A DNA stretch of 64,000 nucleotides from Candidatus Latescibacterota bacterium. Lineage in GTDB: Bacteria; Latescibacterota; UBA2968; GCA-2709665. The stretch covers positions 5,408,001 through 5,472,000 of the forward strand of contig OZ244744.1 in the NCBI GenBank assembly GCA_965219455.1, given 5' to 3'. The notes under the pieces were generated by a model. The model had not been told where the DNA came from, did not search any database, and worked only from the letters and a program-made list of their open reading frames with translations. How positions within the stretch are numbered: position 1 is the stretch's first letter; each line of letters starts with the position of its first letter. This document shows, one piece after another, positions 21,359 through 40,789 of this stretch. A program made the position numbers and the translations under genes.

Positions 21359-21412
21359 AATCCCGTGGCGTTCCGGTATCGGAACGCCCGGGATGTGAAC
21401 GTGAGGTAACTC

Positions 21413-22750: not shown

Positions 22751-22920
22751 GATTCGACCGCGAGCATCCGGACACCCCGATGCCAGAGAGCGCCGATAAG
22801 TCAATCCAGGCCAGTGACGTCAATACGCCCGGCCCCTTGTTGAAATCCGGTTGCTGCATTTCGCGGCCACAAATTGGAAACCCGGTGGCCCGCTTCAGGA
22901 GCACACAGGGAGATGTACTG

Positions 22921-24294: not shown

Positions 24295-25185
24295 ATGCGT
24301 ATAATGGCGGCGGGTTTGACGAAATTCTATCCGAAGGGGACCGTGCCTGCGCTGGATAGCGTCGACCTGGAGATCGGTCAGGGGACATTCGGGCTCCTGG
24401 GTCCGAACGGTGCGGGAAAAACCACGCTCATCAAGATTCTCTCAACCCAGATGGCGCCAACCACCGGGCAGGTAAGGATCGGTGCGTGGGATCTGCAGCG
24501 GAATCGTTCCGAAGTGCGTCGAAGGCTGGGTTATCTTCCTCAACACTTCGGGGCGTATCCGCAACTGACGGCGTGGGAGTTTCTGGATTATATGGACCGG
24601 CTGGCGGTCGGGCGGCGTCGGAGCGGGAGAAAGGCGCGGGTGCGGGATGCGTTGGAGAACGTGGGGCTCTACGATGTGCGCAACCGGCGGACCGGCACGT
24701 ATTCCGGCGGAATGATGCGGCGGCTCGGCATTGCGCAGGCCATCGTCGGTGATCCTGAAATCCTGGTTGTGGACGAGCCCACGGTGGGCCTGGATCCTGA
24801 AGAACGCATACGCTTCAGGGGGATCCTCGCCCGGTTGAGTCGAGACAGGGTCATCTTGATTTCCACCCATATTGTGGGTGATATTTCGAGTACCTGCGAT
24901 GATCTGGCCGTGCTGAATGCCGGACGGATCGTCTACAGGGGTTCGCCAGCGGCGTTAGTTGCTCGCGCGAATGGCAAGACCTGGCGCGTACAGGCGGACG
25001 ACGCCGGATTCGAGACAATCTCCAAACGGTTTCTGGTCGTGACGGTTGCCGTGGACGGTGGCCGGATGGATCTTCGGATCGTGGGCGATGGCCAACCACC
25101 CGCCAACGCGGAACCGGTTTCACCGAATCTTGAAGATGCGTATGTCTATTTTATGGGTAGTGAGAATCTGGAAAGGGCGGCGTAA
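24295..25185 (+). CDS. ABC exporter ATP-binding protein
   Basis: GPNGAGKTT, YSGGM, VVDEPT, STH. Confidence 0.95.
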   Translation: MRIMAAGLTKFYPKGTVPALDSVDLEIGQGTFGLLGPNGAGKTTLIKILSTQMAPTTGQVRIGAWDLQRNRSEVRRRLGYLPQHFGAYPQLTAWEFLDYMDRLAVGRRRSGRKARVRDALENVGLYDVRNRRTGTYSGGMMRRLGIAQAIVGDPEILVVDEPTVGLDPEERIRFRGILARLSRDRVILISTHIVGDISSTCDDLAVLNAGRIVYRGSPAALVARANGKTWRVQADDAGFETISKRFLVVTVAVDGGRMDLRIVGDGQPPANAEPVSPNLEDAYVYFMGSENLERAA

Positions 25186-25197
25186 GTCGCATTGAGC

Positions 25198-28100
25198 ATG
25201 AATTCGGCTTTCACCATATTGTCGGTCGCCAGATACGAACGCAAATTGCTGATGCGGACGATCAGATTTCGCATTCTGGGCGGTATCGGCGTACTTATCC
25301 CCGTTGTTCTGGGCGTGGGCCTGGCCATCGCGGAAGCCCGAGGCGTTGAATTCGAGTCTGTCAGCGGAATCGGCGCCTATATGCCCTTTTTCGTCTACAG
25401 TTTCCTGCAGACCGTCGTGATTGCGTTTATCGTCGGAGATTTCCGCGCCGGCGATGAGCGCGCAGGAATCTACGAGGTGGTTGCGGCCCGGCCGCTGTCC
25501 ACGGCCGAATTGGTCATGGGCAAATACCTGGGTGTTCTGGGTGCTCTCATTACGCTGAGCCTGGTTGTGCTGGTGCTCAGCCTGGGGGTACACGCGGCCA
25601 AGATCAGTATTACCGGTGCGCCGTTTGCCATTCGACCCTATCTGGCGTACTTGCTACTGCTGAACCTTCCGGGGCTCGTTTATATGTCCGCCCTTACGTT
25701 TTTTCTTGGTGCGGTGTTGCGTCGACAGGCTGCAGTGACGGTGCTGACCATTGCTTACGTCCTGGTTGTGCTTTTGTTTCTGGGAAGCCGATACGGCGGT
25801 ATTTACGATTTCGGTGCATTTTTCGCCCCCGTGTTCTATTCGGATATGCTCGGTCTTGGCGATATCCAACGTGTCGTGGAAATCCGATTTTTCTATATGA
25901 TGGCAGCCCTGTTTTTCTTCGGTTTGTCAATCGACCGGTATCCGCGCCTGCCGCAGTCCCGGCCCTGGCGCAGGTTCGGCCGATGTCTGACCGCCGGCGG
26001 TTTCGTCGCCGCGCTGGGCGTGTTCCTGTATATGGAGAGCCGGGACGCGGCCGATCTCGAATACAGGTCGGCACAGTTGGAAGTTCAGGAAAGATATGCC
26101 GAACAGCCGGCCGCTGCCGTAACCCATTACGCGCTGGACCTGGACCTGGCGACAGACAAGGCGCCACTGCGGGGCACGGCGGTTCTGAAAGTCCTGAACC
26201 CTCATCCCGTGCCGCTGGATACCCTCGTTTTCTCTCTCAACCCTGGATTGAAATTGCGGTCTGTGGGCACACAACAGGGAGGAGGCGTTACTGTCAGATG
26301 GCGGCGCGAATATTCTACCGTGCGGGTCGCGCGACCACTCCAACCCGATAGCCTGGCGACACTGGTGTTTGTGTACGACGGTTCGATCGACCGCAGCGGA
26401 TTCGATCTGAGGCGTCATCCGGACGCAAGGCGTTTGCAGAAAAGGCGCGCCGGGCCGGGAAGAAAAGGTGATCTGACCGCCTGGATTCGCCGCAATTCCG
26501 TATTCCTGCCGCCACGCAGCAGATGGTATCCCTCACCCGGCGTGGACTACGGGCATCAGGACGGAAAACCCCTTTCCTTCGCCACCGCAGATCTCAATAT
26601 TTCACTTCCCGCCGGGCTGGAAGTTGTGACCCAGGGTGTGCCGGTGAACCGGAAACCAATGGGCGGACGGGAGACGCATACATGGAAAGTGGAACGCCCT
26701 GTACCTGTTCTTTCGCTCAACGCGGGCGTCTATCGTGTCTATCAGGCGGAAATCCATGATATCCAATGCGCCATTTACGTGCATCCGGCCCACGCCAGAC
26801 AGGTCACCTTCTTCGAAGACGCGAAGGACGATGCCCTCAATACACTCGGCGAAATCCTGGATAGTGTTGAGCAGGAAACCAGCCTGGCCTATCCCTACCA
26901 ACGCCTATCGGTCGTTGAGGTGCCATTCCAGGTACAATGGTATTACGACGGATGGGAGGAAGCCGGTGGATTGGTGCAGCCCGGTGTGCTGATGCTGGAA
27001 GAGGACGTCCTGATGCGGTTGAGGTTACGGCAGCGGTTGAAGTGGATGCAGCGACGGCAGCGGCGAAACGACGACCCTGCGAGAATCAAACGGGATTTGC
27101 TGGTCAGAACGATGCTGAATACGTTTCTGGCGCAGGAATCGTCTCAAAGTGGAATATACCGGAGTCCCGTTGCGCAACTCTGGTCGTTCAACAAGGGATT
27201 CGAAGGCGAGCACTATTCCCTGCTGAAACGCGGTATGCCTGTCTATATGCAGAAACATCTCCTTACCAATCTGCAACAGACATTCTATTCGCGGCGGGGG
27301 CGCTTCCGGGGGCGGTTCCGGCGTAGCAGGGGCGCACGCGGCGTCTCCTGGGATACGGTAACGGCCAGGATGCGGCAGCGTTCCTTTTCGGAACTGGACC
27401 CGAATGACGATGCGGAACTCTACCGGGCGGTCGTCGATGCCAAGGGCGCCTCCATGTTCGGCATGATGCAGGCTGTGGTTGGAGACGAGGCATTCAGGGA
27501 CGTGGTAAGCGGATTCGAGGAAGCGAATCGGCATGCGGGTGTCGACTTCGCTTCGTTTGAGCGGGCGGCTGTGGGAGATTCCTCGCGCCAGGTGAACAAA
27601 CCCAACCTGAATCGCCTGGTCCGCGACTGGCTGCACGGCACCCAGGTTCCGGGGTACACACTGACACGGGCAAAAGCATATAAAGCGGACGACGGGTGGG
27701 GTATGATGACGTACCAGGTCATCGTACGGATCCGTAACGGTGAGTCGGGTCGCGGGTTCGTCCAGATTCGAGCGATGGGTGCCGAGGACGAGGCGGTAAA
27801 GGGAGTCGAGATAGAGGGAGGGCAGGAAGTCGAGGTGGGGTTGATCCTCTGGGAGCGGCCCTCAAGGATAAGCGTCGAGCCCTTTTTTTCACGCAACCGG
27901 CGCGTCCTGATGGCGCCGCTGCGCATACCCGAGCAGCCGATGGACGGATCCGCCACGACCTACGTGAGGGAGGTTGCCCCGGATGAGACCGGATTGACCG
28001 AGATAATCGTTGACAACGATGATGAAGGCTTCGAGATGCCGGTCCGCAGGGTGCGGCGTTATCTTCGGCCGCAGTTGAAGGGCGACAACTGGCAGGAAAG

Positions 28101-28560
28101 GCAGATGCCGTTTTCCTTCGGCCGGTATGAGAGCAACTTCCGGTGGAAGAAACCCGGCGACGGCGCGCAACCGGCCGTCTGGACCGCCAGGTTGCCCCAC
28201 AGCGGGGATTACGATGTTTACTATTATTTCCTTTCCCACAGATTCTCCAGGCGTCTTCGCATGGCATCGGAATTCAATCTGGCCGTTTACCACGGTGGCG
28301 AGGTGGATACACTGGCGGTCGAAGCACACAAACTGAAGGCGGGCTGGAACGTCCTCGGACGTTACCGGTTCGAGGGTGGGGAATTGGCACGTGTCGAATT
28401 GTCCGACCGCGCCAACGGGCGGCTGTACGCCGACGCAGTGCGCTGGAGGTACGTAGACCCTGACCATCCGGAGGACGTATATGAAGAGGAACTTCCCAAC
28501 TGGAACTTCGGCCGCGGCCGGCGCGGTGGGCGCGGACAAAGCCGCGGAGGACGATGGTAA
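25198..28560 (+). CDS. ABC-2 type permease fused to an M1-aminopeptidase-like ectodomain and a C-terminal beta-sandwich
   Basis: About 7 N-terminal TM helices; HYALDL, LNPGL, WYP, YPY..L.VVEVP, KG; no HEXXH seen; C-terminal IIVDNDD...YADAVRW. Confidence 0.75.
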   Translation: MNSAFTILSVARYERKLLMRTIRFRILGGIGVLIPVVLGVGLAIAEARGVEFESVSGIGAYMPFFVYSFLQTVVIAFIVGDFRAGDERAGIYEVVAARPLSTAELVMGKYLGVLGALITLSLVVLVLSLGVHAAKISITGAPFAIRPYLAYLLLLNLPGLVYMSALTFFLGAVLRRQAAVTVLTIAYVLVVLLFLGSRYGGIYDFGAFFAPVFYSDMLGLGDIQRVVEIRFFYMMAALFFFGLSIDRYPRLPQSRPWRRFGRCLTAGGFVAALGVFLYMESRDAADLEYRSAQLEVQERYAEQPAAAVTHYALDLDLATDKAPLRGTAVLKVLNPHPVPLDTLVFSLNPGLKLRSVGTQQGGGVTVRWRREYSTVRVARPLQPDSLATLVFVYDGSIDRSGFDLRRHPDARRLQKRRAGPGRKGDLTAWIRRNSVFLPPRSRWYPSPGVDYGHQDGKPLSFATADLNISLPAGLEVVTQGVPVNRKPMGGRETHTWKVERPVPVLSLNAGVYRVYQAEIHDIQCAIYVHPAHARQVTFFEDAKDDALNTLGEILDSVEQETSLAYPYQRLSVVEVPFQVQWYYDGWEEAGGLVQPGVLMLEEDVLMRLRLRQRLKWMQRRQRRNDDPARIKRDLLVRTMLNTFLAQESSQSGIYRSPVAQLWSFNKGFEGEHYSLLKRGMPVYMQKHLLTNLQQTFYSRRGRFRGRFRRSRGARGVSWDTVTARMRQRSFSELDPNDDAELYRAVVDAKGASMFGMMQAVVGDEAFRDVVSGFEEANRHAGVDFASFERAAVGDSSRQVNKPNLNRLVRDWLHGTQVPGYTLTRAKAYKADDGWGMMTYQVIVRIRNGESGRGFVQIRAMGAEDEAVKGVEIEGGQEVEVGLILWERPSRISVEPFFSRNRRVLMAPLRIPEQPMDGSATTYVREVAPDETGLTEIIVDNDDEGFEMPVRRVRRYLRPQLKGDNWQERQMPFSFGRYESNFRWKKPGDGAQPAVWTARLPHSGDYDVYYYFLSHRFSRRLRMASEFNLAVYHGGEVDTLAVEAHKLKAGWNVLGRYRFEGGELARVELSDRANGRLYADAVRWRYVDPDHPEDVYEEELPNWNFGRGRRGGRGQSRGGRW

Positions 28561-28573
28561 TTAATTATGTAAC

Positions 28574-28589
28574 AAGGATATATATCCTT
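28574..28589. promoter_or_regulatory. Perfect 16-bp palindrome AAGGATATATATCCTT
   Basis: Self-complementary; lies in the short AT-rich gap before the MFP gene. Confidence 0.4.
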
Positions 28590-28604
28590 TTAGCGAGGTG
28601 CGTT

Positions 28605-29684
28605 TTGAATCGACGACTCACTGAATTCTACATGCTATTCATCGGTATTTCTTCGCTGTCGGGCTGCGGCGGGCAAACCGAACAGCGGTCCGTCGATCTG
28701 ACCGTCCCCGTTACGGTTCAGGCGGTACGGCTGGACACTATGGAAGCGACGGTGGGGGCCACGGGCACGCTCCGGTCCTCTAAAGAAGCTCGAATTCTAA
28801 CCGAGGTCGAGGGTATTCTTCGATTTGTCGCACGGGACGGCGGGGGAAGGCCGGCGGAGGGTATGCGGGTAACCCGAAACCAGGAAATCGCCCGTCTGGT
28901 GAACAAGGAACTCGTAGTGAATGCCCGCATTGAATCCCGGTCGCTTGCCAGGTCCGCTGCGAAGCGAACGCTTCGTGAACATGAAGTACTGGTTGAACGC
29001 AAGCTGGGTACGGAGAAAGATCTCGACGAAGCACGCCGCGCACTTGCCGAGGCCGAATCAAATTATGAAGACGCCCTCGTTCAGATCGCCAAGACGACGA
29101 TTCGTACACCAATCACCGGCTTTCTAACGGGATTGGCCGACATTACCGACGGTACACTCGTAGAAGCCCGTACGACCATTGCGACGGTGATGGATTACAG
29201 CCGTGTGTTCGTCGACCTTAAGATACCGAACGCCCATATCTCTTCGGTTTCGCCGGGTCAGGTTGTGCGTGTGGAGAACTATGCCCTGCCCAACCGGTTG
29301 TTTCTGGGGACCATCAAGGTGGTGGATCCGGCGATCGATCCGACGACCCGTACGTTCCGGGTGGTGGGGGTTGTGAAGAATCCGGACCTGATATTGCGGC
29401 CGGGCATGTTCGTGAAAGCGGAGATTGTCACGGAGTCACACGAAAACGCGGTGGTGATCCCGCGCCTCTTTGTCCTGACCCGCCAGAATCGCAAGGTGGT
29501 GTTCGTTGAAGAGGAGGGGAGGGCGCAGATGCGCAACGTGGTATTGGGGTTGGAGGGGTCGGAGCGGGTCGAGATTCTCGAGGGGCTTGAACCGGGGGAG
29601 CGCCTCATTACCAGCAACTACGAGACCCTGCGGCCCCGTACGCGCGTACGGGTAACCGGCGAGGGAGTGCCGGGGCAGCGATAG
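28605..29684 (+). CDS. RND membrane fusion (periplasmic adaptor) lipoprotein
   Basis: Lipobox LSGC; IRTPITG, PAIDPTTRT, LRPGMFV, GLEPGE; TTG start after GAGGTG. Confidence 0.92.
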   Translation: MNRRLTEFYMLFIGISSLSGCGGQTEQRSVDLTVPVTVQAVRLDTMEATVGATGTLRSSKEARILTEVEGILRFVARDGGGRPAEGMRVTRNQEIARLVNKELVVNARIESRSLARSAAKRTLREHEVLVERKLGTEKDLDEARRALAEAESNYEDALVQIAKTTIRTPITGFLTGLADITDGTLVEARTTIATVMDYSRVFVDLKIPNAHISSVSPGQVVRVENYALPNRLFLGTIKVVDPAIDPTTRTFRVVGVVKNPDLILRPGMFVKAEIVTESHENAVVIPRLFVLTRQNRKVVFVEEEGRAQMRNVVLGLEGSERVEILEGLEPGERLITSNYETLRPRTRVRVTGEGVPGQR

Positions 29685-29920: not shown

Positions 29921-32900
29921 ATGTCTTTGCCCGAATTCTCGATAAAATATCCGGTGACGGTTGCAATGGCCACGCTGGCGGTCGCGCTCCTGGGTTGGAT
30001 CTCGCTGGCGCGGCTGGACGTGGATCTGTTGCCCGACCTGCGTTCTCCCGTGATCACTGTCGACCTGCGTTTTCCGGGTAAGACTCCCAGGGAAATGGAG
30101 GAGCGTTATGCGCAGCGGCTCGAAGGGGATATCGGTACGGTGCGCCATGTCAAGCGGGTACATTCAGTGTCTCGCTCCGGGCAGGCCGTGGTGATCGCGG
30201 AATTTGAATGGGACGCGGATATGGATTTCGCCCTGCTCGACGTGCAAAAAAAAGTGGCGCGTTACGCAGCGGATCCGGATATCACGAGTCTGGACGTGAC
30301 TCAGGAAGACCCTCAGGCGCTGCCGGTGATGCGCCTGGCCGTCTCCGGAGCGGATTGGCAGGATCCGGACGAATTGCTGGGCAGCGTGGAAACGATAATA
30401 AGGCCGAAACTTGAAGGGTTCTCCGGGGTGGCTTCGGTTGAAATCGAAGGGGGGGCGGAGAAGGAGATCCATGTCACGCTGGATTCCTATCTTCTGCAGG
30501 CCTTTGGTGTCAATTCCGAAACGGTCGTCTCGCGGATTCGTGAGGCGAATTCGGATGTCTCCGGGGGAACGTTGAAGGACGGACAACGTTCCTTTCTGGT
30601 CAAGGGTCTGGGACGTCTGACCGGTTTGCAGGACGTGAACAACCTGGTTGTGGGTGAGCGCGGAGGCGGAACGGCGAACGGCCAGGAAGACGCCCCAACC
30701 CAGCGGGTGCCCGTCACGGTTAGCGACGTGGGTACCGTGGCTCTACGATACAAGGAAAGGGAAACCATCGTGCGGCTCGACGGCATGGAGTGCGTCGGGC
30801 TTTCCGTTTACAAAGAAGCGGGTGCGAATACCTCGTCGGTGGCCAAAGGGGTTCTTCAAGAACTGGGAAGCCTTGAGTCCGACCTGGCCGGCATTCGGTT
30901 TACGGTGGTGGAAAATCAGGCACGTTTTGTTGAACGCGCGGTAAACGAAGTGGAAGAAGCGGCTGTTTTCGGTGCGTTACTGGCCGTGGGCGTGCTGCTG
31001 GCTGCGCTACGGCAGTGGACAGCCACACTGGTGATTGGACTTGCCATTCCGATTTCCGTACTGGCCACCTTCACGCTGATGTATTTCCAGGGGTTGACGT
31101 TGAATGTGATGACCCTGGGCGGGTTGGCGTTGGGGGCAGGCATGCTGGTTGATAACGCCATTGTCGTGATCGAAAACATCTACCGGCACCTCGAACGGGG
31201 GGAAACGGCCGCCGAAGCCTCCATCAGAGGCGCGAGCGAGGTCGGGGTCGCCATTCTGGCCTCCACGCTTACCACGGTGTCCGTGTTTCTGCCCATCGTC
31301 TATCTTCAAGGGTTGGCTGGCGAACTCTTCAAGGAGCAGGCCTGGACGGTAGCGTTTTCGCTGATTTCGTCTCTTGCGGTGGCCATGACTGTGGTTCCGA
31401 TGTTGACCGCCCGGCTTTTCGGGCGGTATCCTCGCCGATCCGCAAGAGGCGCCGGCTCGGCCACGTTCAGGCGCTTTCTGGGTGGATCACTCAGCCACAA
31501 GGGCCGCACGTTGGCGGTGCTTGCCGCTTGTCTTCTGGCCGCCGTCTACATGGCCGGGTCGATCCATACGTCTTTTATACCCGGGGAAGACGAGGGTGTG
31601 CTTCACGTGGACCTCTCGCTCCCGGAGGGCACGAGGCTCGAGTCAACGGACCGGGTGGCGAGACGCGTTGCCGCAATCACACAGGCGGTCACCGGAGAGG
31701 AAGCCCGTCACATTTACCTCCGCGTGGGAAACGATCCGAACCGGTTGACGGCCGTGGGAGAACCCACCGGCCCGAACAGGGCCGAGCTGACGGTGGTGCT
31801 GGTGCAGCGAACGGACCGGCGCAGTCTCTCCGAACTCACCGCCGCGCTGGATACGGCCATTCGGGAAGTGCCGGATATTAAGGTAAACTATCGCCTTCAA
31901 AAGGCTGCATTAGAAGGACTTATCGGTGGAGATGCCGCACCGGTTCAAGTCGAGGTCAGCGGAGAGAACCTGGATTTACTCCGGGAACTGACGGCAGATC
32001 TGAAACGGCGCATGGAAGCGTTACCCACGGTGTATAATGTACGAACCAGCTTCCAGGATGGTCAGCCCGAAGTGGACGTGGTGTTGCGGCCGGACGTCAC
32101 GGCGGCGTTTGGTCTCACGTCACAGAACCTCGTACGCGAACTCGAGCGCAGACTGGCAGGTGAGGAAGCCGGGGAACTCTCCAAAGACCAGCGGGCGCGA
32201 ACCATCCGGGTGGGTTTCGAAGATGTTGATCTTCGCGAGTTGAAACACACAAGAATTGACGGTCCCGACGGGGCGATGCTCACACTGGGAGATCTCGCCG
32301 ACTTGCGCGTTGTCCAGGGGCCGCGGGAGATTTTGCGTGACGGTCAGCGCCGGGTGGGTAGGGTATCCGCTTATCTGACCGACGGGGTGGTGTTGAGCCA
32401 GGCGGCAACGCAGATCAGACAGGCGGTGGGACAGATGGCCGTTCCGAACGGATATCGGGTGATCGTTACAGGCGAGGAACGGGAGCGGGCCGAGTCATTT
32501 GGCGGCCTGCAATTCGCCCTTTTGCTGTCGGTGGTGCTCGTATATATGGTAATGGCTTCGCTTTTTGAGTCTTTGCTCCATCCGTTTACCGTGATGCTGA
32601 CAGTGCCGCTGGCAGGCATCGGGGTGGTGTTCGCATTCTGGAGCCTTGGAGAAGCGTTTGGCGTAATGGCATTCATCGGAGCAATCATGCTGGGAGGAAT
32701 CGCGGTGAACGACGCCATCATTATGGTGGACCGCATCAACCAGCTGCGGCGCGATACGGACGACTTGAGACAGGCGGTTCTCCAGGGTGCGCAGGATCGG
32801 CTGCGTCCGATCCTGATGACCAGCGCCACAACCATTCTTGCGCTGTTACCCATGGCGGTGGGGGTCGGCGAAGGCGCCCGTTTGCGGACGCCGATGGCGG

Positions 32901-33004
32901 TGGCGGTTATCGGCGGGCTGGTGACGTCCACGCTGATGACCCTTGTGGTGATTCCTGTGGTTTACGAATTGATCGAACGGCTCAGAATCAGGAGAGCGTC
33001 GTGA
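29921..33004 (+). CDS. RND (AcrB/NolG-like) permease
   Basis: PVTVAM, DLLP, LNVMTLGGLALGAGMLVDNAIVV, RLRPILMT. Confidence 0.95.
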   Translation: MSLPEFSIKYPVTVAMATLAVALLGWISLARLDVDLLPDLRSPVITVDLRFPGKTPREMEERYAQRLEGDIGTVRHVKRVHSVSRSGQAVVIAEFEWDADMDFALLDVQKKVARYAADPDITSLDVTQEDPQALPVMRLAVSGADWQDPDELLGSVETIIRPKLEGFSGVASVEIEGGAEKEIHVTLDSYLLQAFGVNSETVVSRIREANSDVSGGTLKDGQRSFLVKGLGRLTGLQDVNNLVVGERGGGTANGQEDAPTQRVPVTVSDVGTVALRYKERETIVRLDGMECVGLSVYKEAGANTSSVAKGVLQELGSLESDLAGIRFTVVENQARFVERAVNEVEEAAVFGALLAVGVLLAALRQWTATLVIGLAIPISVLATFTLMYFQGLTLNVMTLGGLALGAGMLVDNAIVVIENIYRHLERGETAAEASIRGASEVGVAILASTLTTVSVFLPIVYLQGLAGELFKEQAWTVAFSLISSLAVAMTVVPMLTARLFGRYPRRSARGAGSATFRRFLGGSLSHKGRTLAVLAACLLAAVYMAGSIHTSFIPGEDEGVLHVDLSLPEGTRLESTDRVARRVAAITQAVTGEEARHIYLRVGNDPNRLTAVGEPTGPNRAELTVVLVQRTDRRSLSELTAALDTAIREVPDIKVNYRLQKAALEGLIGGDAAPVQVEVSGENLDLLRELTADLKRRMEALPTVYNVRTSFQDGQPEVDVVLRPDVTAAFGLTSQNLVRELERRLAGEEAGELSKDQRARTIRVGFEDVDLRELKHTRIDGPDGAMLTLGDLADLRVVQGPREILRDGQRRVGRVSAYLTDGVVLSQAATQIRQAVGQMAVPNGYRVIVTGEERERAESFGGLQFALLLSVVLVYMVMASLFESLLHPFTVMLTVPLAGIGVVFAFWSLGEAFGVMAFIGAIMLGGIAVNDAIIMVDRINQLRRDTDDLRQAVLQGAQDRLRPILMTSATTILALLPMAVGVGEGARLRTPMAVAVIGGLVTSTLMTLVVIPVVYELIERLRIRRAS

Positions 33005-36000
33005 TTCTCCCCGATCTTGCGGTACGGCGGCCAGTGACGACGTCCATGTTTTTCGCTGCGTTCGCCATATTGGGTGTCGTATCGTGGACCCGGCTTCCGG
33101 TACAGCTCTTTCCCGAGCTGATTTTTCCCGAAGTTTTCGTTACGCTCTCGCTGCCGGGGGCCGCTCCGGAACAGGTTGAAAGGGACCTGGTGATTCCCGC
33201 CGAAGGGGAGATCGGCAAGCTGGACGGGGTCCGGGAGATGGAGTCGTTTGCTATGGCCAATATGGGTGGCATAAGAATTTCCTATGCCCCGGACGTGGAT
33301 ATGAAATTCGCCCTGCTTCAGCTGCAAAGCAACCTGAACAGGTTGCAGCCGACGCTGCCCGAACGTACGCAAACGGATGTACAGAGGTTCGATTCTACAG
33401 ATCTGAGCAGCAGTATCATGGAGCTTCACGTGCTTGCCGATTGGGATCTGAACCAGCTACGGGAGTTCACGGAGGAAAAAATCCGTCCTGAATTGGAGTC
33501 TATCGACGGTGTTGTGAATGTGTCCGTAATGGGCGGGCGGCGCAGCGCCGTGGAAATCGTCCTGGATCCGTTGCTGCTGGAGGCGCATGGCCTTTCCATC
33601 GCACAGGTACGGGGACGCATGAACAACTATAACCGGCGACGTGAGTACCTCGGCCGCGTATACGACGGGAATCGGGCTTACTCGGTGAGCATTCAGGGAC
33701 AGTTTACCGACCTGCGCCAGATTCGGGATCTTGTGTTGAACGCGGACGGTACACTCAGACTTGGCGACGTTTCCCGGGTGGGATACGGACTTCAGGAACA
33801 GGCCGATCGCCACAGAGTCAACGGCAAACCATCGGTGGGGGTCCGAGTTCAGAAGGACGACGACGCGAATCTGGTCGAGGTGGCCACCGCTGTAGAAGCG
33901 GCCATTGGACAGCTGAATCGGAATTTCAAGAGCGAGGGTGTGGAATTGGGCGTGAGTTCGTCTCAGGCGGACCTGATGACCGGGGCGCTTTCCACCCTGA
34001 AACAGGCGGCCATTGTCGGCGCTGTCCTCGGACTGATCGTGCTCTTTCTGTTTCTTCGGAACCTTCGTTTTGTCTCGGTCCTCCTTCTGGCCATTCCGGT
34101 TTCTCTCCTGATGACCTTTAATCTGATGTACCTGGGGGGACTATCCGTGAACGTCCTGTCGCTTTGCGGCCTGGCCCTCGCGATGGGAATGCTCGCGGAC
34201 AACGGCATCGTGGTGATGGAAAATATCTTCAAGCACTACGAGCGTGGAAAACCGCCGGCCCAGGCGGCGCGGGAGGGGACGGCCGAGGTTGGGCGCGCGG
34301 TGGTCGCGGCAACCGCCACCACCGTTACCGCTTTCCTGCCCGTTCTGTTTATCGAGAGCGACGCGAGGGACCTGCTGCGCGAACTGGCGTTGTCCATGGC
34401 GTTTCCACTTATGGCATCACTGCTGGTCGCGCTGACGCTTGTACCGGCCCTTGCCGTCCGCGCATTGAGCCGCGAGGTCCGGCAACCGCCTGACGTCCGC
34501 GGCTTACTCGAACAGTATACGCTACTGTTGAAGGCGGCTCTGCGGCACCGCGTGTCGGTCGCCATGTCAGTAGGGGGCGCGCTCGCGCTGACACTCGTCG
34601 TGGCCTTCTTCTTCCTGCTACAGCAGCAGGTACGGCGAGAGGAGACGCGATTTACGGTTTACGTGAACCTTCCGCAGGGGGCCACACTGGATGCCACCGA
34701 TGAGGTCGCTAAACAGGTGGAAGAATCTGTGAGGGACGTGCCCGGGCTGGACCGGTTTACGACGTCGGTTCAGGAGGCCGAGGCAAACGTTACCGTCCTG
34801 CTGGGAAAGCGTACTGACCGGCCGGGCGGCATCTCGCTGGATGAAATCAAAGAGCAACTCGACGAAAAACTGCAGAACGTGCAGGGCGGTGTGGTCGGAT
34901 ACGAGCCCAGGCCGCGGGCAGGGAGGGGCGGTCGCGGGCAGGGGATAGGGCAGCGTCGGAGGCGCAGTTCCGGTGGTTTCGATCTGACGGGGGCCACGCC
35001 GAACGAGCAGGCCGTGGTTCGAGGATACGATTTTACAATACTCACGATGATCGCCAACGACATGGTGTACCGCCTTGAGGAACTGGAGGAGGTGGATGCC
35101 AACAGCGTACGCGCTGACGCCGAACGGAGTTCGCCGGAGGTTCAGGTGATTCCCGATGCAGCGGCCCTGTTCGACCGGCGGCTCGGGGCACAGGAGGTAC
35201 TGGCTGCCATGGGAGACACCCGCTTTGACGGATTCCGCACCACCGTACCGTTTCTGCTGCCCGACGCAACCGAGGTACCCATCGAAGTGCGTACGATTGA
35301 AGAGGAGGACCGCGACCGCTACGGGCTGGCTGAATTCAAACGCTCCCGCATTCTCAACCAGGAGGGGCAGTACGTGTCTCTGGACGAAGTCGCGCGGGTT
35401 CGAACGGACGAGGGCAGAAGCAGCCTGTTGCGGACCGACCAGGCCCGTCGGATTGTGGTTTCCTACCAATTTCCTTCGGAAATTCTGGATTCACAGCCAC
35501 GGTTGGATGTTGCGAGACGGTCCGTGCGGACGACTCTGCAGGATATGGTGCTGCCGGAGGGCTATTCTATCGAGACAATCGAGGCGCAGGAAGAGACGAT
35601 TTACTATTGGATGATGGGAATTGCCGCGGTGCTCATCTACATGATTCTGGCCTCGCTGTTTGAATCTTTCGCGTCTCCGGTCATCATTCTATGTACGTTG
35701 CCGCCCGCGGCCATCGGCTCCTGTTGGGCGCTGATGGCGTCGGGCACGGGTCTGAGCCAGCAGGAGGGCCCCATGGCGCTTCTGGGCCTTATTGTCCTGC
35801 TGGGTATCGCCGTGAATAACGGAATCATCCTGATTGACGCGGTCGGCGTGCTCAGGTCCCGTTTCGGATATCGCAGGGAACGTGCTGTACTGACCGCGGC
35901 AAGGTCCCGAGTGCGACCCATATTGATGACGACGGCCACAACGCTTCTGGGCGTTCTTCCGCTCGCGCTGGAATTCGGTGGTGATTTTGAAATCTGGCCG

Positions 36001-37713
36001 CCGTTTGCAATCACCGTTCTGGGTGGCTTGTCGGTTTCCATGGTATCCACACTGATCCTGATTCCGGTCGTTTACATGGGGCTGGATCAGATCGGAGCCT
36101 GGCTGGCCGACATGGGGTTTGTCGGCGTCACGCTCTCCCTGCTGGCTACCGCTGCGGCCGGCTACGGCGTATATACCCGATATGAAAGCATTTTCTGGGC
36201 AGCCCTGTCGATATTGCCCATCTGGTGCGCGTTCCTGGCGGCGGTGTGGATCGTCCTGAAGGTGCATCGCGCTCGAGTCGACGCCCGTCGGGCGTCGAGC
36301 GCCGTGTATTCCATTCAACTCAGGAATCTGACCAAAATCTACGGCGCACCCGGGCGTTTTGGCCGGGAGTGGGCGCGCAACGAGCGTCGGAGAGGGCGGT
36401 TAATGGAATTGGGATTGGATCCGCAGGACCGCAAAGCGGTTCGTGATGCTCTCCTCTGGAAGCTGCCGTTGCTCGCCCTGTTGGTGTTTTTTACCTCCTA
36501 TTTCGAGGACGAAATCTGGATCTATCTGCACGGGTTGGCGCTTGCATTCATGCTGGCACACGTGGGTCGACGTTTCGGCGACCTCTGGCGAGGGCGTTTG
36601 TCGGCGCCGGTGGACCGCATCGGAGACTTTCTGCACAAAGTCGCTCTACCACTGGGGTTTATGGCTTATGCGCACTGGCGGCTGAACTTGCTTTCCGTCA
36701 CCATTGCAACCTTCGGATTGTGGGCCGCCTATCGTCTGGCGCGATGGCTCGCGGACAAGGTGCGGACTGGCGAGATAAATCTCGATGACCTGCCCGGGCG
36801 TTTTGCACGGGCGCGCCGATGGTTTTATCGGATGCCATCGGCCCTGCCCCTTATCGGTGTTCCCCGCCCGGAATTTCGGGCGCTGGCTGGCGTCAACCTG
36901 GAAATCGGCAGGGGAATGTTCGGTCTTTTGGGCCCCAATGGCGCCGGTAAGACCACGTTGATGCGTATTCTTTGTCGGGTCCTCGAACCCAGCTACGGGT
37001 CGATTCAGATCGATGGTCGAAACATCTTGAGGAAGGGTTCGATTCATGGTCTGATCGGGTACCTTCCGCAGCACTTCGGCAACTACGAACATCTCTCCGC
37101 ATACGAATTTCTGGAATACCGGGCGCTGCTGGAAGGCTATAAGGACCGCAAGATTCGCGAGAGGCGGGTGATCGAATCTCTGGAACAGGTAAATCTGATC
37201 GAACGCAAGGAAGATCCGATCGGGTCTTTCTCAGGGGGAATGAAGCAGCGACTTGGCATCGCACAGACCCTCTTGCACACCCCGATGATCGTGGTGGTGG
37301 ACGAGCCCACTGCGGGGCTCGATCCGCTGGAGCGTATCCGGTTTCGCAACCTGCTCGCCCGCTTGAGTCAGGATCGGATCGTCATTTTTTCCACGCACAT
37401 TGTGGAAGATATCTCCGGAAGCTGCAATCGACTGGCGGTACTGGATCAGGGGCGTCTTCTGTATACGGGAACGCCGGAGGAGATGAGAAATCTGGCGGAG
37501 GGACGGGTTTGGGACGCGGTGGTTTCGGAACAGCACTTTTCCGAATTGGAAGAAAAACTGAAGCTCATATCACACCAGCGAGCGTCAGACGGCGTCCGAA
37601 TGCGATTCTTGTCCGAACGTCCACCGGTTGGCTTCGGCGCGCAGAGCGTGGATCCAACCCTGGAAGACGCGTATCTCTACCTTCTTGGCGGAGGAGAGGA
37701 ACAGCCGTGCTGA
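33001..37713 (+). CDS. RND permease fused to extra TM helices and a C-terminal ABC ATPase
   Basis: Continuous 1570-aa ORF: RND motifs (GMLADNGIVV, RVRPILMT), then GPNGAGKTT, FSGGMKQR, VVDEPT, STH. Confidence 0.92.
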   Translation: MILPDLAVRRPVTTSMFFAAFAILGVVSWTRLPVQLFPELIFPEVFVTLSLPGAAPEQVERDLVIPAEGEIGKLDGVREMESFAMANMGGIRISYAPDVDMKFALLQLQSNLNRLQPTLPERTQTDVQRFDSTDLSSSIMELHVLADWDLNQLREFTEEKIRPELESIDGVVNVSVMGGRRSAVEIVLDPLLLEAHGLSIAQVRGRMNNYNRRREYLGRVYDGNRAYSVSIQGQFTDLRQIRDLVLNADGTLRLGDVSRVGYGLQEQADRHRVNGKPSVGVRVQKDDDANLVEVATAVEAAIGQLNRNFKSEGVELGVSSSQADLMTGALSTLKQAAIVGAVLGLIVLFLFLRNLRFVSVLLLAIPVSLLMTFNLMYLGGLSVNVLSLCGLALAMGMLADNGIVVMENIFKHYERGKPPAQAAREGTAEVGRAVVAATATTVTAFLPVLFIESDARDLLRELALSMAFPLMASLLVALTLVPALAVRALSREVRQPPDVRGLLEQYTLLLKAALRHRVSVAMSVGGALALTLVVAFFFLLQQQVRREETRFTVYVNLPQGATLDATDEVAKQVEESVRDVPGLDRFTTSVQEAEANVTVLLGKRTDRPGGISLDEIKEQLDEKLQNVQGGVVGYEPRPRAGRGGRGQGIGQRRRRSSGGFDLTGATPNEQAVVRGYDFTILTMIANDMVYRLEELEEVDANSVRADAERSSPEVQVIPDAAALFDRRLGAQEVLAAMGDTRFDGFRTTVPFLLPDATEVPIEVRTIEEEDRDRYGLAEFKRSRILNQEGQYVSLDEVARVRTDEGRSSLLRTDQARRIVVSYQFPSEILDSQPRLDVARRSVRTTLQDMVLPEGYSIETIEAQEETIYYWMMGIAAVLIYMILASLFESFASPVIILCTLPPAAIGSCWALMASGTGLSQQEGPMALLGLIVLLGIAVNNGIILIDAVGVLRSRFGYRRERAVLTAARSRVRPILMTTATTLLGVLPLALEFGGDFEIWPPFAITVLGGLSVSMVSTLILIPVVYMGLDQIGAWLADMGFVGVTLSLLATAAAGYGVYTRYESIFWAALSILPIWCAFLAAVWIVLKVHRARVDARRASSAVYSIQLRNLTKIYGAPGRFGREWARNERRRGRLMELGLDPQDRKAVRDALLWKLPLLALLVFFTSYFEDEIWIYLHGLALAFMLAHVGRRFGDLWRGRLSAPVDRIGDFLHKVALPLGFMAYAHWRLNLLSVTIATFGLWAAYRLARWLADKVRTGEINLDDLPGRFARARRWFYRMPSALPLIGVPRPEFRALAGVNLEIGRGMFGLLGPNGAGKTTLMRILCRVLEPSYGSIQIDGRNILRKGSIHGLIGYLPQHFGNYEHLSAYEFLEYRALLEGYKDRKIRERRVIESLEQVNLIERKEDPIGSFSGGMKQRLGIAQTLLHTPMIVVVDEPTAGLDPLERIRFRNLLARLSQDRIVIFSTHIVEDISGSCNRLAVLDQGRLLYTGTPEEMRNLAEGRVWDAVVSEQHFSELEEKLKLISHQRASDGVRMRFLSERPPVGFGAQSVDPTLEDAYLYLLGGGEEQPC

Positions 37714-38429
37714 ACTGGCGAGAATTGCTGCTGACCACGTGGCGGCTCTATCGGCTTAGCTGCAGGATCATATTTCACAGGAAGTTGATGTTCATGGCCA
37801 TTGGTGTTCTTGTCTATTACGCCGCCATGTATGCATTTGCAGTCTGGCGCCCCAGCGAAGGATTCGGCGTATCGCGAGCGCTCAATGTTCTGGTTGAAAT
37901 TCCCGGCATCGCCCTGGCCATTTATCTGACGATGGATCTCGTTGCAGGCGAACGCGATAGAAATACACTGGAGACGCTATTCAGTACAACCTCGTCCCAC
38001 TATAAAATATGGGCGATTCGGATGGTCGGAGTTTATCTGGTGTTGGCGGGAACCCTGATGGGAATGACGGTTGCCGCCTATTTCTTATTTGCGGAATTGC
38101 CGATATTCCGGGGTGGGTTGAATGCGTTTCTGCCAGCGTGTTTCACCGCGGGGCTTACGTTTTACTTTTCCGTTCTCTGTCGAAGCGGCAATGCGGCCGC
38201 GATGCTCGCTACCGGAGTGATGGGCCTGACTCTGTTCATCTCGGAATCCATGCCAGATTCTCCATTCACGCTTTTTCTGAGTACGTTTGATCCCCCGGTG
38301 GGTATGGAAGGCACCCTGTGGGGCGACCAGGTGCTGCTGAATCGCCTGGCTGTACTGATGCTGTCGGGATTGCTGCTTTTTATGGGCCTGCGCAAGATGG
38401 AAGCCAGGGAGCGATTGGTATCTTCGTAG
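37707..38429 (+). CDS. ABC-2 type permease
   Basis: About 6 TM helices; ERDRNTLETLFST motif; GTG 37707 overlaps the upstream gene. Confidence 0.85.
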   Translation: MLNWRELLLTTWRLYRLSCRIIFHRKLMFMAIGVLVYYAAMYAFAVWRPSEGFGVSRALNVLVEIPGIALAIYLTMDLVAGERDRNTLETLFSTTSSHYKIWAIRMVGVYLVLAGTLMGMTVAAYFLFAELPIFRGGLNAFLPACFTAGLTFYFSVLCRSGNAAAMLATGVMGLTLFISESMPDSPFTLFLSTFDPPVGMEGTLWGDQVLLNRLAVLMLSGLLLFMGLRKMEARERLVSS

Positions 38430-38614
38430 CGGTATGTGATTCCGCCCCGGATGAACCGATCGTACGCCACACGGCCACGGATTCCGAATCCGGTCGACGA
38501 CACGGCATTATCAGGTCGTCGTCACGGGCGGAATCTGCGGAGCGCGCCACTTTAGGTTGGACATGTCACCGATCTGATGCGCGAGACACCGGCCGGGATT
38601 CTCGCCCGCCGATG

Positions 38615-39757
38615 TTATTCCTTGCGTACATCCAACCGGACCTTGCGGGGTTCTACCTTTACGACCGTCAGATCCGTCCCGTGTGTTATCGACTCGACGC
38701 CAAACTCGAATGTTCTGCGTCCGAACCTGACGTAGGCGGCATTGATCACGAGTCGAAAGTCGTCCACGGGCGCCAGCAGAAAGGCGCGCCGCGGCCCCTT
38801 CACGGTTACGTTTACAACGTCCGGTCTGACCCCCTCCAGTGTATAGCCACTCGGTAGGTTCTCCACGCCGACCTCCACTTCGTACGTCGTTTCCTGGACC
38901 GCCGCGCCGGGTACCAACAACAGCCATGCACCGAACGCCAGCGCGAAGGAGAGCAAACCTTCAGCGAGATGTCGCGCCAGCCAGCCCCGACCGGTCCTCC
39001 TCGCGCTCGCGACCACGTGCTGCGCGTGCTCCTGTAACCTGGCCAGCAGTTCCTCGGGATCGTCTATAATCTCCAGTCGACCCTGCCGCGCGACGGCGAT
39101 GGTGCCGCGCTCCTCGGAAACCACCAGGCACAGGGCGTCGCTACGCTCGGTCAGCCCGAGTGCCGCAGCGTGGCGAGTGCCTCCGGGCCCGAGTTCGCCC
39201 CGGTTTTCCGAGAGCGGCAGATATACGGCGAAACGCTCCAGCCTGTCTTCTCTCATAACCAGAGCGCCATCGTGACCCGCCGCCGCCGTGCCGAACAGGC
39301 TATCGATAAGTTCCTCGCTGATGGTCGCTTGCAGTTCAATCCCGCCTTGCAAATACCGATCCAGCGGCTCGCGTCCGGGCAATACCACCAGGGCGCCCTG
39401 CCGCTTCGCCGCCAGTTGATGCATCGCCCGAACCAGCACCGCCAGACTCCCGCTCCGGGGGCGCGATACCCTCCTGCCCAGGCCGAGTGCGGCAATCTGT
39501 TCAAAGAGCCGTCGCAGGTCGTCCTGAAAAACGACAACAAGCAACACAACCAGGACCGCAAAAAACCCCTGGAAGATCCACGCTGTCAGTTGCAGTTCGA
39601 ATTGCCGCGCCAGCAGGTAGAAGGCACCCAAAAAGGCCAGCCCGATGAGCGCCATTCGGGCGTGCATTCTCCGAGTCCAGACCAACAGGCCCCAGAACAG
39701 TACACCCACGACCGCTATGTCCACAAAATCGGCCAATGCGATCTCAAGTAGCGTCAT
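38615..39757 (-). CDS. Diadenylate cyclase (CdaA/DacA) fused to a YbbR/CdaR-like domain
   Basis: 3 N-terminal TMs, VVFQDDLRR, HDGA, GTRHAAALG, VVSEERG; then a TM and V.V.V.GPR YbbR-like repeat. Confidence 0.85.
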   Translation of the reverse strand: MTLLEIALADFVDIAVVGVLFWGLLVWTRRMHARMALIGLAFLGAFYLLARQFELQLTAWIFQGFFAVLVVLLVVVFQDDLRRLFEQIAALGLGRRVSRPRSGSLAVLVRAMHQLAAKRQGALVVLPGREPLDRYLQGGIELQATISEELIDSLFGTAAAGHDGALVMREDRLERFAVYLPLSENRGELGPGGTRHAAALGLTERSDALCLVVSEERGTIAVARQGRLEIIDDPEELLARLQEHAQHVVASARRTGRGWLARHLAEGLLSFALAFGAWLLLVPGAAVQETTYEVEVGVENLPSGYTLEGVRPDVVNVTVKGPRRAFLLAPVDDFRLVINAAYVRFGRRTFEFGVESITHGTDLTVVKVEPRKVRLDVRKE

Positions 39758-40108
39758 ATCAGGAGATTTCCCGGCTGCCGGATTCACTGGATGGAGGACG
39801 CGAGCCTGCCCACGATGGGCGAATACCTGCCGGCTCGAAATATGGGCAATCTTTCACAATTCGTCAAGACCGCAGCGAATCATTCCCGCTGGGCCGTTGA
39901 ATGTCGATCGGGGTCTCCGGCGGCCTATTCATCGCGCGATCCGGTCGGAGGCACAAGGCGTTGGATTCAGACGTCCTGCAAGACCACGCTTCGGATCTCG
40001 CCTTTCGCTTGGTCAGTCCAGGGTAAATACATATATTTAGAGACATTCAGGGCAACCGGAAATGGACATCTGTTTGTCTGACGCTGTTTATGGACGGAGG
40101 AGAGCGAT

Positions 40109-40789
40109 ATGCAGGGTACACGGGGACGATTGAGCAGGCGGGAACTCAGGCAGGACGAGTTTGCGAAAAGGATATTGGTTGCATGGGCTTATGTGGAGGA
40201 GAACTATATACGTGTGCTTGCCGTGGGCGCGGGGGTGGCGGTCCTTATCCTGCTAGGCGTATTCGTCATGCACCGGATGGACGCCCGGGCCATGGAGGCA
40301 GTGGAGGCGGAGGGACGGGTTCGGGTATTGTTGCTACAGGGGCGGGTTGACGATGCCATCTTGGAAGCAGAGCGCATTGCGGAAGCCTATAGTGGTGATG
40401 CAGCCGCAGGGCGAGCGCTTCAACTGGCTGGCGGCCTTTATTTCGAAACGGGGCGTCACGCCGAGGCACAGGCTGCATTTGAAAAATACCTCCAGGAGTT
40501 CGACTCGACGGGTCCCACGGGGTATAGCGCCTGGTCCGGTGTGGCCGCGGCGATGGAAGAACAGGGCGATCCCGCGAGTGCGGCGGCCAGATACCAGGCG
40601 TTCGCCGATGAATTCGAAGACTCGCCGTTCGCGCCCAATGCACTCAAAGAGGCGGCCCGTTGTTATCGGGTCTCGGGAGATACCGATCAGGCCAGGAATC
40701 TGTTGCAGCGCATTCTGGACAGGTATTCCAAGAGCCCGGTCGTTCGGAGCGCAGAGGAGGAACTCAAGCAGATGGGTGGCATCGGATGA
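40109..40789 (+). CDS. Membrane-anchored TPR protein (YfgM/CpoB-like)
   Basis: ELRQDEF, single TM, TPR repeats ending 'ILDRYSKS'; RBS GGAGGAG. Confidence 0.8.
   Translation: MQGTRGRLSRRELRQDEFAKRILVAWAYVEENYIRVLAVGAGVAVLILLGVFVMHRMDARAMEAVEAEGRVRVLLLQGRVDDAILEAERIAEAYSGDAAAGRALQLAGGLYFETGRHAEAQAAFEKYLQEFDSTGPTGYSAWSGVAAAMEEQGDPASAAARYQAFADEFEDSPFAPNALKEAARCYRVSGDTDQARNLLQRILDRYSKSPVVRSAEEELKQMGGIG

Follow-up and report, generated by a model that had tools for sequence, protein, structure and literature searches.

The stretch examined here is a window of 64,000 nucleotides (nt) from the genome of a Candidatus Latescibacterota bacterium (assembly GCA_965219455.1, contig OZ244744.1, positions 5,408,001 to 5,472,000 of the forward strand), and all coordinates given below are positions within this window. 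It contains a gene in which a resistance-nodulation-division (RND) permease and an ATP-binding cassette (ABC) ATPase are joined in a single polypeptide of 1570 amino acids (aa), encoded by one open reading frame (ORF) that starts with GTG and has no internal stop. The gene lies in a cluster together with a stand-alone ABC ATPase, a 1122-aa ABC-2-type permease with a peptidase-like part (hereafter the ABC-2/M1-like protein), a periplasmic adaptor or membrane fusion protein (MFP), a stand-alone RND permease (RND1) and a small ABC-2-like permease (Table 1). The stop codon of RND1 overlaps the GTG start of the fusion by 4 nt, and the GTG start of the small permease overlaps the stop of the fusion by 7 nt.

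In the fused protein, residues 5–1027 matched Pfam ACR_tran (PF00873; E 1.1e-181, profile positions 3–1019 of 1021) and residues 1297–1438 matched ABC_tran (PF00005; E 8.9e-27), while no NCBIfam model attained its cut-off over the entire chain. Judged by hydropathy, the segments of the RND half (RND2) stand at the places expected of the 12-transmembrane (TM), two-loop RND fold. They are followed by two further hydrophobic helices, TM13 and TM14 (hydropathy medians 1.79 and 2.08 across 36 orthologs), which in the structural model bring the chain back to the cytoplasm. A Gly/Arg-rich low-complexity stretch was also seen within the periplasmic part of the RND half (approximately 34906–35010, fusion residues ~636–670); it is not present in RND1 and is Gly-rich in the consensus of 33 homologs.

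Table 1. Coordinates of the fused gene, its parts and the clustered genes in the window
Feature	Position (nt)	Strand	Evidence
Stand-alone ABC ATPase, unsplit nucleotide-binding domain (NBD), closest paralog of the fused NBD	24295..25185	+	Pfam ABC_tran, E 6.9e-31
1122-aa ABC-2 permease + M1-peptidase-like + Golvesin_C domain	25192..28560	+	Pfam
Periplasmic adaptor (MFP)	28554..29684	+	HlyD_D23, 1.5e-24; NCBIfam RND_mfp, 179.6 bits vs cut-off 94.9
RND1, 1027-aa stand-alone AcrB-type permease	29921..33004	+	Pfam ACR_tran, 6.6e-225
Fused gene: RND2, two TM helices, beta1/A-loop, four-helix insert, ABC NBD	33001..37713	+	ORF, Pfam, alignment, AlphaFold2 (AF2)
RND (AcrB/MdtB-like) domain, residues 5–1027	33013..36081	+	Pfam ACR_tran; MdtB 9lyq_B match
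Extra TM13 + TM14, residues 1031–1097	36091..36291	+	AF2 helices, hydropathy
Detached NBD strand beta1 + A-loop Y1114, residues 1104–1114	36310..36342	+	Invariant residues, AF2 strand, matrix
Insert: charged helix 1119–1136, then hydrophobic helices 1144–1167, 1171–1196, 1202–1228, 1231–1255 (predicted TM15–18)	36355..36765	+	AF2, hydropathy
NBD from beta2 onward + small C-terminal beta-rich domain, residues 1292–1570	36874..37710	+	Pfam ABC_tran, motifs, Foldseek
NBD motif, Walker A	36931..36957	+	
NBD motif, signature	37231..37242	+	
NBD motif, Walker B	37294..37305	+	
NBD motif, H-loop	37396..37398	+	
240-aa six-to-seven-helix ABC-2-like permease	37707..38429	+	Start context, AF2, Foldseek

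The NBD of the fusion is not contiguous, as its first strand (beta1) and the residue Y1114, which by its position we take to be the adenine-stacking A-loop residue known from ABC ATPases, lie about 175 residues ahead of beta2. At the same place the stand-alone paralog reads ...LTKFY-PKGTVP-ALDSV..., that is, it has 6 residues where the fusion has about 175. In 33 diverse full-length homologs L1110, K1112 and Y1114 of the detached strand are invariant, and the same holds for Walker A (1311–1319), the Q-loop (Q1357), the signature SGGM (1411–1414), the D-loop, Walker B (D1434/E1435) and the H-loop (H1466). The sequences listed from a 110-protein alignment carry the motif I-x-[IL]-[RK]-N-L-T-K-[IV]-Y-G-A-P-G-R-F-x-R-E-W ahead of the hydrophobic insert, down to 40% identity. 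The position of beta1 was also located with a position matrix built solely from residues 3–14 of 65 stand-alone ABC ATPases of the retrieved loci and scanned over whole fused proteins. Its top site fell at residues 1080–1160 in 128 of 130 full-length fused proteins and, in the fusion of the window, scored 24.1 bits at residue 1105 vs 5.7 bits for the runner-up, a placement of beta1 far beyond chance.

The C-terminal part (residues 1030–1570, 541 aa) was modelled with AF2 from a 36-sequence alignment of the fetched loci (mean predicted local distance difference test score, pLDDT, 80.8; predicted template modelling score, pTM, 0.60). The model consists of helices at 1031–1061 and 1064–1097, an 11-residue strand at 1104–1114 (pLDDT of the beta1 block 78–81), the charged helix and the four hydrophobic helices of the insert (Table 1), a short helix at 1269–1281, and beta2 at 1292–1303, after which the NBD is normal. 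Since DSSP strands need a bridge partner and the remaining strands of the model are all within the NBD, beta1 would rejoin the NBD sheet. As modelled, the ABC fold can accommodate a membrane-embedded insert behind strand beta1. The preliminary description of the locus, made from the sequence alone, had read one unbroken ORF with a full AcrB-like RND domain, two extra TM helices and a complete ABC ATPase, whose NBD was split after the first strand by about 175 aa with about four hydrophobic helices, as against only 6 aa in the paralog. ORF analysis, Pfam and AF2 agree with it on all these points, and the places it gave are exact: SIQLRNLTKIYG corresponds to residues 1104–1115 (nt 36310–36345) and ALAGVNLEIG begins at residue 1293 (nt 36877).

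The hydropathy of the insert and its lysine and arginine (K+R) distribution fit a predicted in-out-in-out-in path through the membrane: the three predicted cytoplasmic segments have K+R medians of 15, 3.5 and 8.5, the three predicted periplasmic turns 0, 0 and 1. Its helices have no conserved charged residue, and their invariant positions are mostly interfacial Trp, Pro and Gly. A profile of residues 1030–1291 was searched against 1.84 billion representative proteins and gave 159 matches at E ≤ 0.001, 112 at 1e-10 and 44 at 1e-30; the full-length ones carry the insert at about 1030–1290, and by this search the insert appears to be private to the fusion family. The idea that it is a diverged ABC-2 permease was rejected, as the alignment of the insert with that of the downstream permease in hhalign had a probability of 0.2%. 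Insert size varies, given that the fragment P0274, a distant family member whose C-terminus appears frameshifted, has about 270 residues with more hydrophobic segments between a beta1-like strand and Walker A.

The window genome is a single closed contig of 5.84 Mb in which the fusion gene occurs once. Two public sequencing runs, which may come from the source sample, each span 32900–38500 (5.6 kb) in one contig with 0 differences, and a 2343-nt contig of a related strain from another study (34297–36639; 12 substitutions, 0 gaps) bridges the end of the RND domain, TM13 and TM14, beta1 and the first part of the insert. Within the fusion gene these public contigs showed no indel or joint, save a cross-match of the Walker-B region to the paralog. 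An artefact or a decaying gene, be it a misassembly or an accidental recent read-through fusion, is thereby refuted: the genome is closed, independent contigs cross the junction free of indels, and several phyla contain over 100 full-length homologs with invariant catalytic residues.

These homologs were obtained by searching the C-terminal 541 residues against proteins of 863–2748 aa. Among the best 120 matches, which are those listed, all 120 contain both PF00873 and PF00005, most are approximately 1550–1620 aa long, and identities range from 87% to 40%. Their named sources are Gemmatimonadetes/Gemmatimonadota, Latescibacterota, Acidobacteriota and candidate division KSB1, and they bear generic product names (‘efflux RND transporter permease subunit’, ‘ATP-binding cassette domain-containing protein’ or, from the Joint Genome Institute, ‘AcrB/ABC-type ... 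ATPase subunit’). In a scan of one genome per species, six more full-length relatives (34–36% identity) were located on Bacteroidota contigs, including those of the cultured Labilibacter sediminis and of a Sunxiuqinia metagenome-assembled genome, so that full-length proteins with both domains recur in several phyla. In the phylum of the window a match at E ≤ 1e-90 is present in 82 of 168 genomes (34 of 52 among those ≥ 90% complete and ≤ 5% contaminated), almost always a single one, in an open frame of approximately 1570 aa or longer where the contig permits. In a Bacteroidota sample the insert was present in 4 of 401 genomes, in all of them within open frames of 1572–1577 aa.

Stand-alone forms of the C-terminal module were sought as well. 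A word-based search of shorter proteins gave 8 matches, mostly fragments with the end of ACR_tran. Ten odd-length matches to the insert profile were checked: seven begin inside ACR_tran and are N-terminally cut fragments for that reason, whereas three are without ACR_tran, two of which (P0243 and P0274) begin in the last RND helix and the third (P0153, 526 aa) starts with a methionine at the first extra helix, a possible stand-alone form. Neither the search of shorter proteins nor the insert-profile scan of the 1.84 billion representatives gave a convincing stand-alone ATPase with the insert. The constancy of the fusion bears on whether it serves co-assembly only, i.e., as a tether that provides equal dosage or co-localisation of two transporters working on related but distinct substrates or steps, with neither hand-over of substrate nor conformational coupling. 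Both halves look complete and individually competent by their sequences, and functionally linked proteins that work by independent mechanisms are commonly fused; a split NBD with six extra helices would, however, be an elaborate and conserved linkage if tethering were its sole role, and the architecture does not change between homologs of 87% and of 34% identity, split forms not having been found in the searches. We consider this explanation very improbable.

Which kind of ABC system the fused ATPase belongs to was assessed from its modelled structure. The best Foldseek matches of the NBD were TM_1403 (4yer, E 7.7e-23, TMt 0.75) and NosF (7osf, E 3.4e-19; also 7o0y), together with ABCA4/7/1/3 and LptB, and its best NCBIfam ATPase models, below their cut-offs, were of the DrrA and GldA types. 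By this model the fused NBD is of the ABC-2/ABCA type with a C-terminal regulatory-like domain. The small permease encoded directly downstream (AF2 pLDDT 83.0, pTM 0.80) had ABC permeases as its first 41 Foldseek matches, nearly all of them type V, with NosY first, followed by PmtCD, ABCH, CcmB and ABCG (NosY 7o0y_D, TM-score 0.61/0.56; range for NosY 0.56–0.64). From sequence context and models, this permease is presumed to be the membrane partner of the fused NBD.

The arrangement of the cluster was compared in 26 related loci with long flanks (6 from Bacteroidota or other sources in the species scan and 20 from the phylum of the window). The order MFP–RND1–fusion is kept in 25 of them, the exception being the rearranged locus L004, and the small permease directly follows the fusion in 24, the other two being L124, where the contig ends, and L004, where the locus ends. 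The ABC-2/M1-like protein is encoded upstream in 24 of the 26 loci, and the paralog ATPase heads the cluster in related loci too. In the more distant loci a gap of approximately 1.5 kb separates the ABC-2/M1-like gene from the MFP gene, and in locus L001 this gap contains a gene for a TolC-family outer-membrane factor (OMF; OEP, E 3.3e-43). The window genome has five OMF genes, all outside the window. The fusion and its cluster of six to seven genes are thus conserved in at least two phyla that were directly examined. L004, from an uncultured bacterium, has the order MFP-like, ABC ATPase, RND1-like, weak ABC-2/M1-like and a fusion-like ORF extending up to the locus end.

The 1122-aa protein has 6–7 hydrophobic segments in its first 285 residues. 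It matched Golvesin_C (2.6e-15) and, below the gathering score, ABC2_membrane_3 (1.7e-06) and Peptidase_M1 (2.9e-05), and an NCBIfam search of it returned no match. Catalysis by its M1-like domain was ruled out, as neither an HExxH nor a GxMEN motif is present, and the small permease as a duplicate of its N-terminal membrane part was rejected, as BLASTP gave no significant match between the two. Of the 168 genomes of the phylum, 77 have both the fusion and the ABC-2/M1-like protein, 5 have the fusion only, 4 have only the other protein and 82 have neither, and all nine discordant genomes are 58–90% complete. These counts are given without a statistic because the genomes of a phylum are related and not independent samples. 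In some genomes extra copies of the ABC-2/M1-like protein are located away from the fusion. The paralog ATPase is 46% identical to fusion residues 1288–1563 and is the best non-self match in the genome (46–47%).

The RND half has MdtB as its best solved relative (9lyq_B, E 2.1e-86) and is 33% identical to RND1. Its genomic association is that of an RND pump, with an MFP gene two genes upstream and an OMF gene in the L001 cluster and elsewhere in the window genome. The proton relay of E. coli AcrB is formed by D407 and D408 (TM4) and K940 (TM10). The fused RND lacks this combination of two Asp in TM4 and a Lys in TM10: it has D400-N401 in TM4 and N939-N940 in TM10, invariant or nearly so, where MdtB has DD and KKN, and RND1 has D-N in TM4 and N-D in TM10. 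The genome encodes 10 RND paralogs, most of them with D-N in TM4 and N-N or N-D in TM10 and none with the TM10 Lys, and three stand-alone ones have the same D-N and N-N as the fusion. For this reason D-N/N-N is a trait of the lineage and not a defect of the fusion, and a lost proton relay, with ATP replacing protons in the fused RND, was rejected. The RND half looks like an ordinary RND of this lineage with no sign of abandoned proton coupling, and, judged by these residues, the RND pumps of this lineage appear to use a relay unlike the textbook one of E. coli.

These residues also bear on whether ATP could act on the RND itself. In such a machine the insert would wire the A-loop and beta1 into the membrane beside the RND TM bundle, gating, priming or powering its cycle, with the small permease in an accessory role. 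Covalent linkage of the two halves is strictly conserved, with split forms not found in the searches, the insert directly follows the adenine-stacking tyrosine, and it is unique to the fusion family and unrelated to the ABC-2 permease, all of which would fit. The TM4/TM10 residues, however, are the same as in the three stand-alone paralogs, hence nothing suggests that proton coupling was lost; the insert helices have no conserved charge, their invariants being mostly interfacial Trp, Pro and Gly; and a dedicated permease of NosY-like fold is conserved downstream. We know of no precedent for ATP driving an RND pump and regard this as improbable. Equally doubtful in our view is that the insert passes the nucleotide state of the ABC domain into the RND membrane domain, or the reverse, with ATP gating or boosting the RND cycle in a dual-energised efflux machine.

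We favour as probable, from sequence and models, that the protein is a natural, conserved hybrid of 18 helices, part of a composite tripartite exporter that links a type-V, ATP-driven ABC-2 module to an RND pump encoded by two genes. In this exporter beta1 and the adenine-stacking tyrosine would fold back onto the NBD in the cytoplasm, past a pair of membrane hairpins, and the fused ATPase would most likely work with the small, translationally coupled NosY-like permease downstream. The RND half would most likely join RND1 in an MdtBC-like mixed trimer, which together with the adaptor and an outer-membrane channel would hold the ATP-driven ABC-2 module against a proton-driven tripartite RND conduit, i.e., a supercomplex. 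As to its operation, we prefer a relay, whereby the ABC module and the second ABC-2 system of the cluster would move a substrate out of the cytoplasm or the inner leaflet and the RND/MFP/OMF part would expel it across the outer membrane. The partners, the stoichiometry, the relay and the hand-over of substrate are what we infer from the gene order and the models. The preliminary description had proposed a physically coupled ABC-RND hybrid transporter: the physical coupling stands, with RND and ABC on one chain and the architecture kept across phyla, any energetic coupling being putative. The ATPase's own NosY-like permease, the second RND, the MFP and the second ABC-2 system of the cluster, as well as the relay residues shared with stand-alone RND paralogs, had escaped it.

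Several observations weigh against this composite exporter. ABC NBDs are dimeric and RND pumps trimeric, a mismatch in stoichiometry, and nothing in the data points to a substrate or to its passage from the ABC module into the RND pump. That beta1 pairs within the NBD sheet is read from the DSSP strand assignment of a model, and of the insert helices TM15 and TM17 are only moderately hydrophobic (medians 1.26 and 1.47, with 12 of 36 and 16 of 36 sequences at 1.5 or above). The structural matches of the downstream permease are weak by E-value, which is never below 0.011, and its Pfam match to ABC2_membrane_2 is below the gathering score (16.1–21.6 bits vs a cut-off of 27.2). The predicted complex of the C-terminal module and this permease speaks for their pairing, though weakly, with a score of 0.59 vs 0.00 for the best control (contact agreement ≥ 92% and partner pLDDT ≥ 72 in the runs); among solved complexes 58 of 80 attain the mark of 0.59, and among mismatched pairs 2 of 110 do so, 7 of the 80 and both mismatches being at no more than 0.60, and the pass may come from likeness to solved NosFY complexes. 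In the ESM Atlas, Bacteroidota clusters with representatives of 551 and 480 aa resemble the C-terminal module and might be stand-alone forms of it. Lastly, a 201-nt metatranscriptome contig (36030–36230, one difference) from a library labelled sponge metagenome is too short to show transcription or habitat.

A variant of the composite exporter would resolve the dimer-versus-trimer problem. Here the fused NBD would pair with the paralog ATPase and the small permease with the ABC-2/M1-like permease, giving one heterodimeric ABC-2 transporter docked via one RND2 on an RND1(2)RND2(1) trimer. Two NBD genes and two ABC-2-type permease genes are indeed in the same cluster, nearly all genomes of the phylum have the fusion and the ABC-2/M1-like protein either together or not at all, neither NBD has a closer paralog in the genome than the other one (46–47% identity), and the best solved relative of the RND half is the MdtB of an MdtB2C heterotrimer. 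On the other hand, both NBDs are fully canonical and lack the degenerate site often found in heterodimers, the two permeases have no detectable sequence similarity, four or five genes lie between the two gene pairs, and some genomes have the additional ABC-2/M1-like copies away from the fusion. We see this variant as possible, yet rather unlikely.

The composite exporter, as we favour it, shares traits with several known systems. As in MdtABC-type pumps, two tandem RND genes follow an MFP gene, and among solved structures MdtB comes closest to the fused RND (MdtC and MdtB are also the best named NCBIfam models, far below their cut-offs), whereas here one RND subunit bears six more helices and an ABC ATPase, TM4/TM10 have D-N and N-N instead of D-D and K, and the mixed trimer is a putative one, what is observed being the tandem adjacent genes. 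With NosFY/NosDFY and the type-V ABC-2 transporters (Wzm-Wzt, ABCA, ABCG) it has in common an NBD plus C-terminal domain like those of TM_1403, NosF and ABCA, and a downstream permease whose best folds, weak by E-value, are NosY, PmtCD, ABCG and CcmB; unlike in these systems, the NBD is not free in the cytoplasm but follows an RND on the same chain, and four membrane helices interrupt it after beta1. In MacAB-TolC, too, an ABC ATPase is associated with an MFP and an OMF to span the envelope, while here the inner-membrane part of the conduit is a pair of RNDs and the ABC part is of the ABC-2 type; no cluster protein matched FtsX or MacB_PCD in Pfam or NCBIfam, and by these searches the locus is not of the MacB type.

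Two further systems offer partial parallels. In CFTR the regulatory insertion of NBD1 sits between beta1 and beta2 and is short, soluble and disordered; it occupies the same place in the ABC fold as the insert of the fusion, which differs in having about 175 residues with four hydrophobic helices. In ArsAB an ATPase turns a secondary carrier into a primary pump, with separate subunits and no outer-membrane conduit, and thus an ATPase and a carrier able to use the membrane potential are united in one machine, from families unrelated to those of the fusion. A description of an RND-ABC fusion was not found in the full-text searches made, which cover neither subscription journals and supplements nor TCDB and the InterPro architecture tables, and passages of PMC8277102, bioRxiv 10.1101/072470 and PMC3924187 describe none either. 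The component families are known; within the literature searched, what is undescribed is the RND-ABC hybrid that combines them.

Other genes flank the cluster. Upstream (19748–24168, + strand) are a TPP-dependent enzyme, an FAD-dependent oxidoreductase (DAO) and a 473-aa L-PSP (RidA-like) protein, a region before which the related-locus comparison ends. Convergent with the end of the cluster is a CdaA-like diadenylate cyclase (38615–39787, − strand; DAC domain, CdaA_N and a weak YbbR), followed by a TPR protein (226 aa) and a 1222-aa protein with PQQ_2/FG-GAP beta-propeller repeats (40109–44328, + strand). Rfam at gathering thresholds returned nothing in the window.

Envelope-spanning export in diderm bacteria relies mainly on two kinds of engine, RND pumps driven by the proton-motive force and ABC transporters driven by ATP, which are regarded as distinct machines with separate sources of energy. 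A natural fusion that joins them and is conserved would provide an experimental handle on how primary and secondary transporters can cooperate, and it would do so in Gemmatimonadota, Latescibacterota, KSB1, Acidobacteriota and some Bacteroidota, carriers of the fusion family in which transport physiology is almost unknown. With Labilibacter sediminis the family has at least one cultured host, which makes it tractable. If the dual-energised reading were true, ATP and the proton-motive force would be combined mechanically, a mode of coupling that would be new to both superfamilies.

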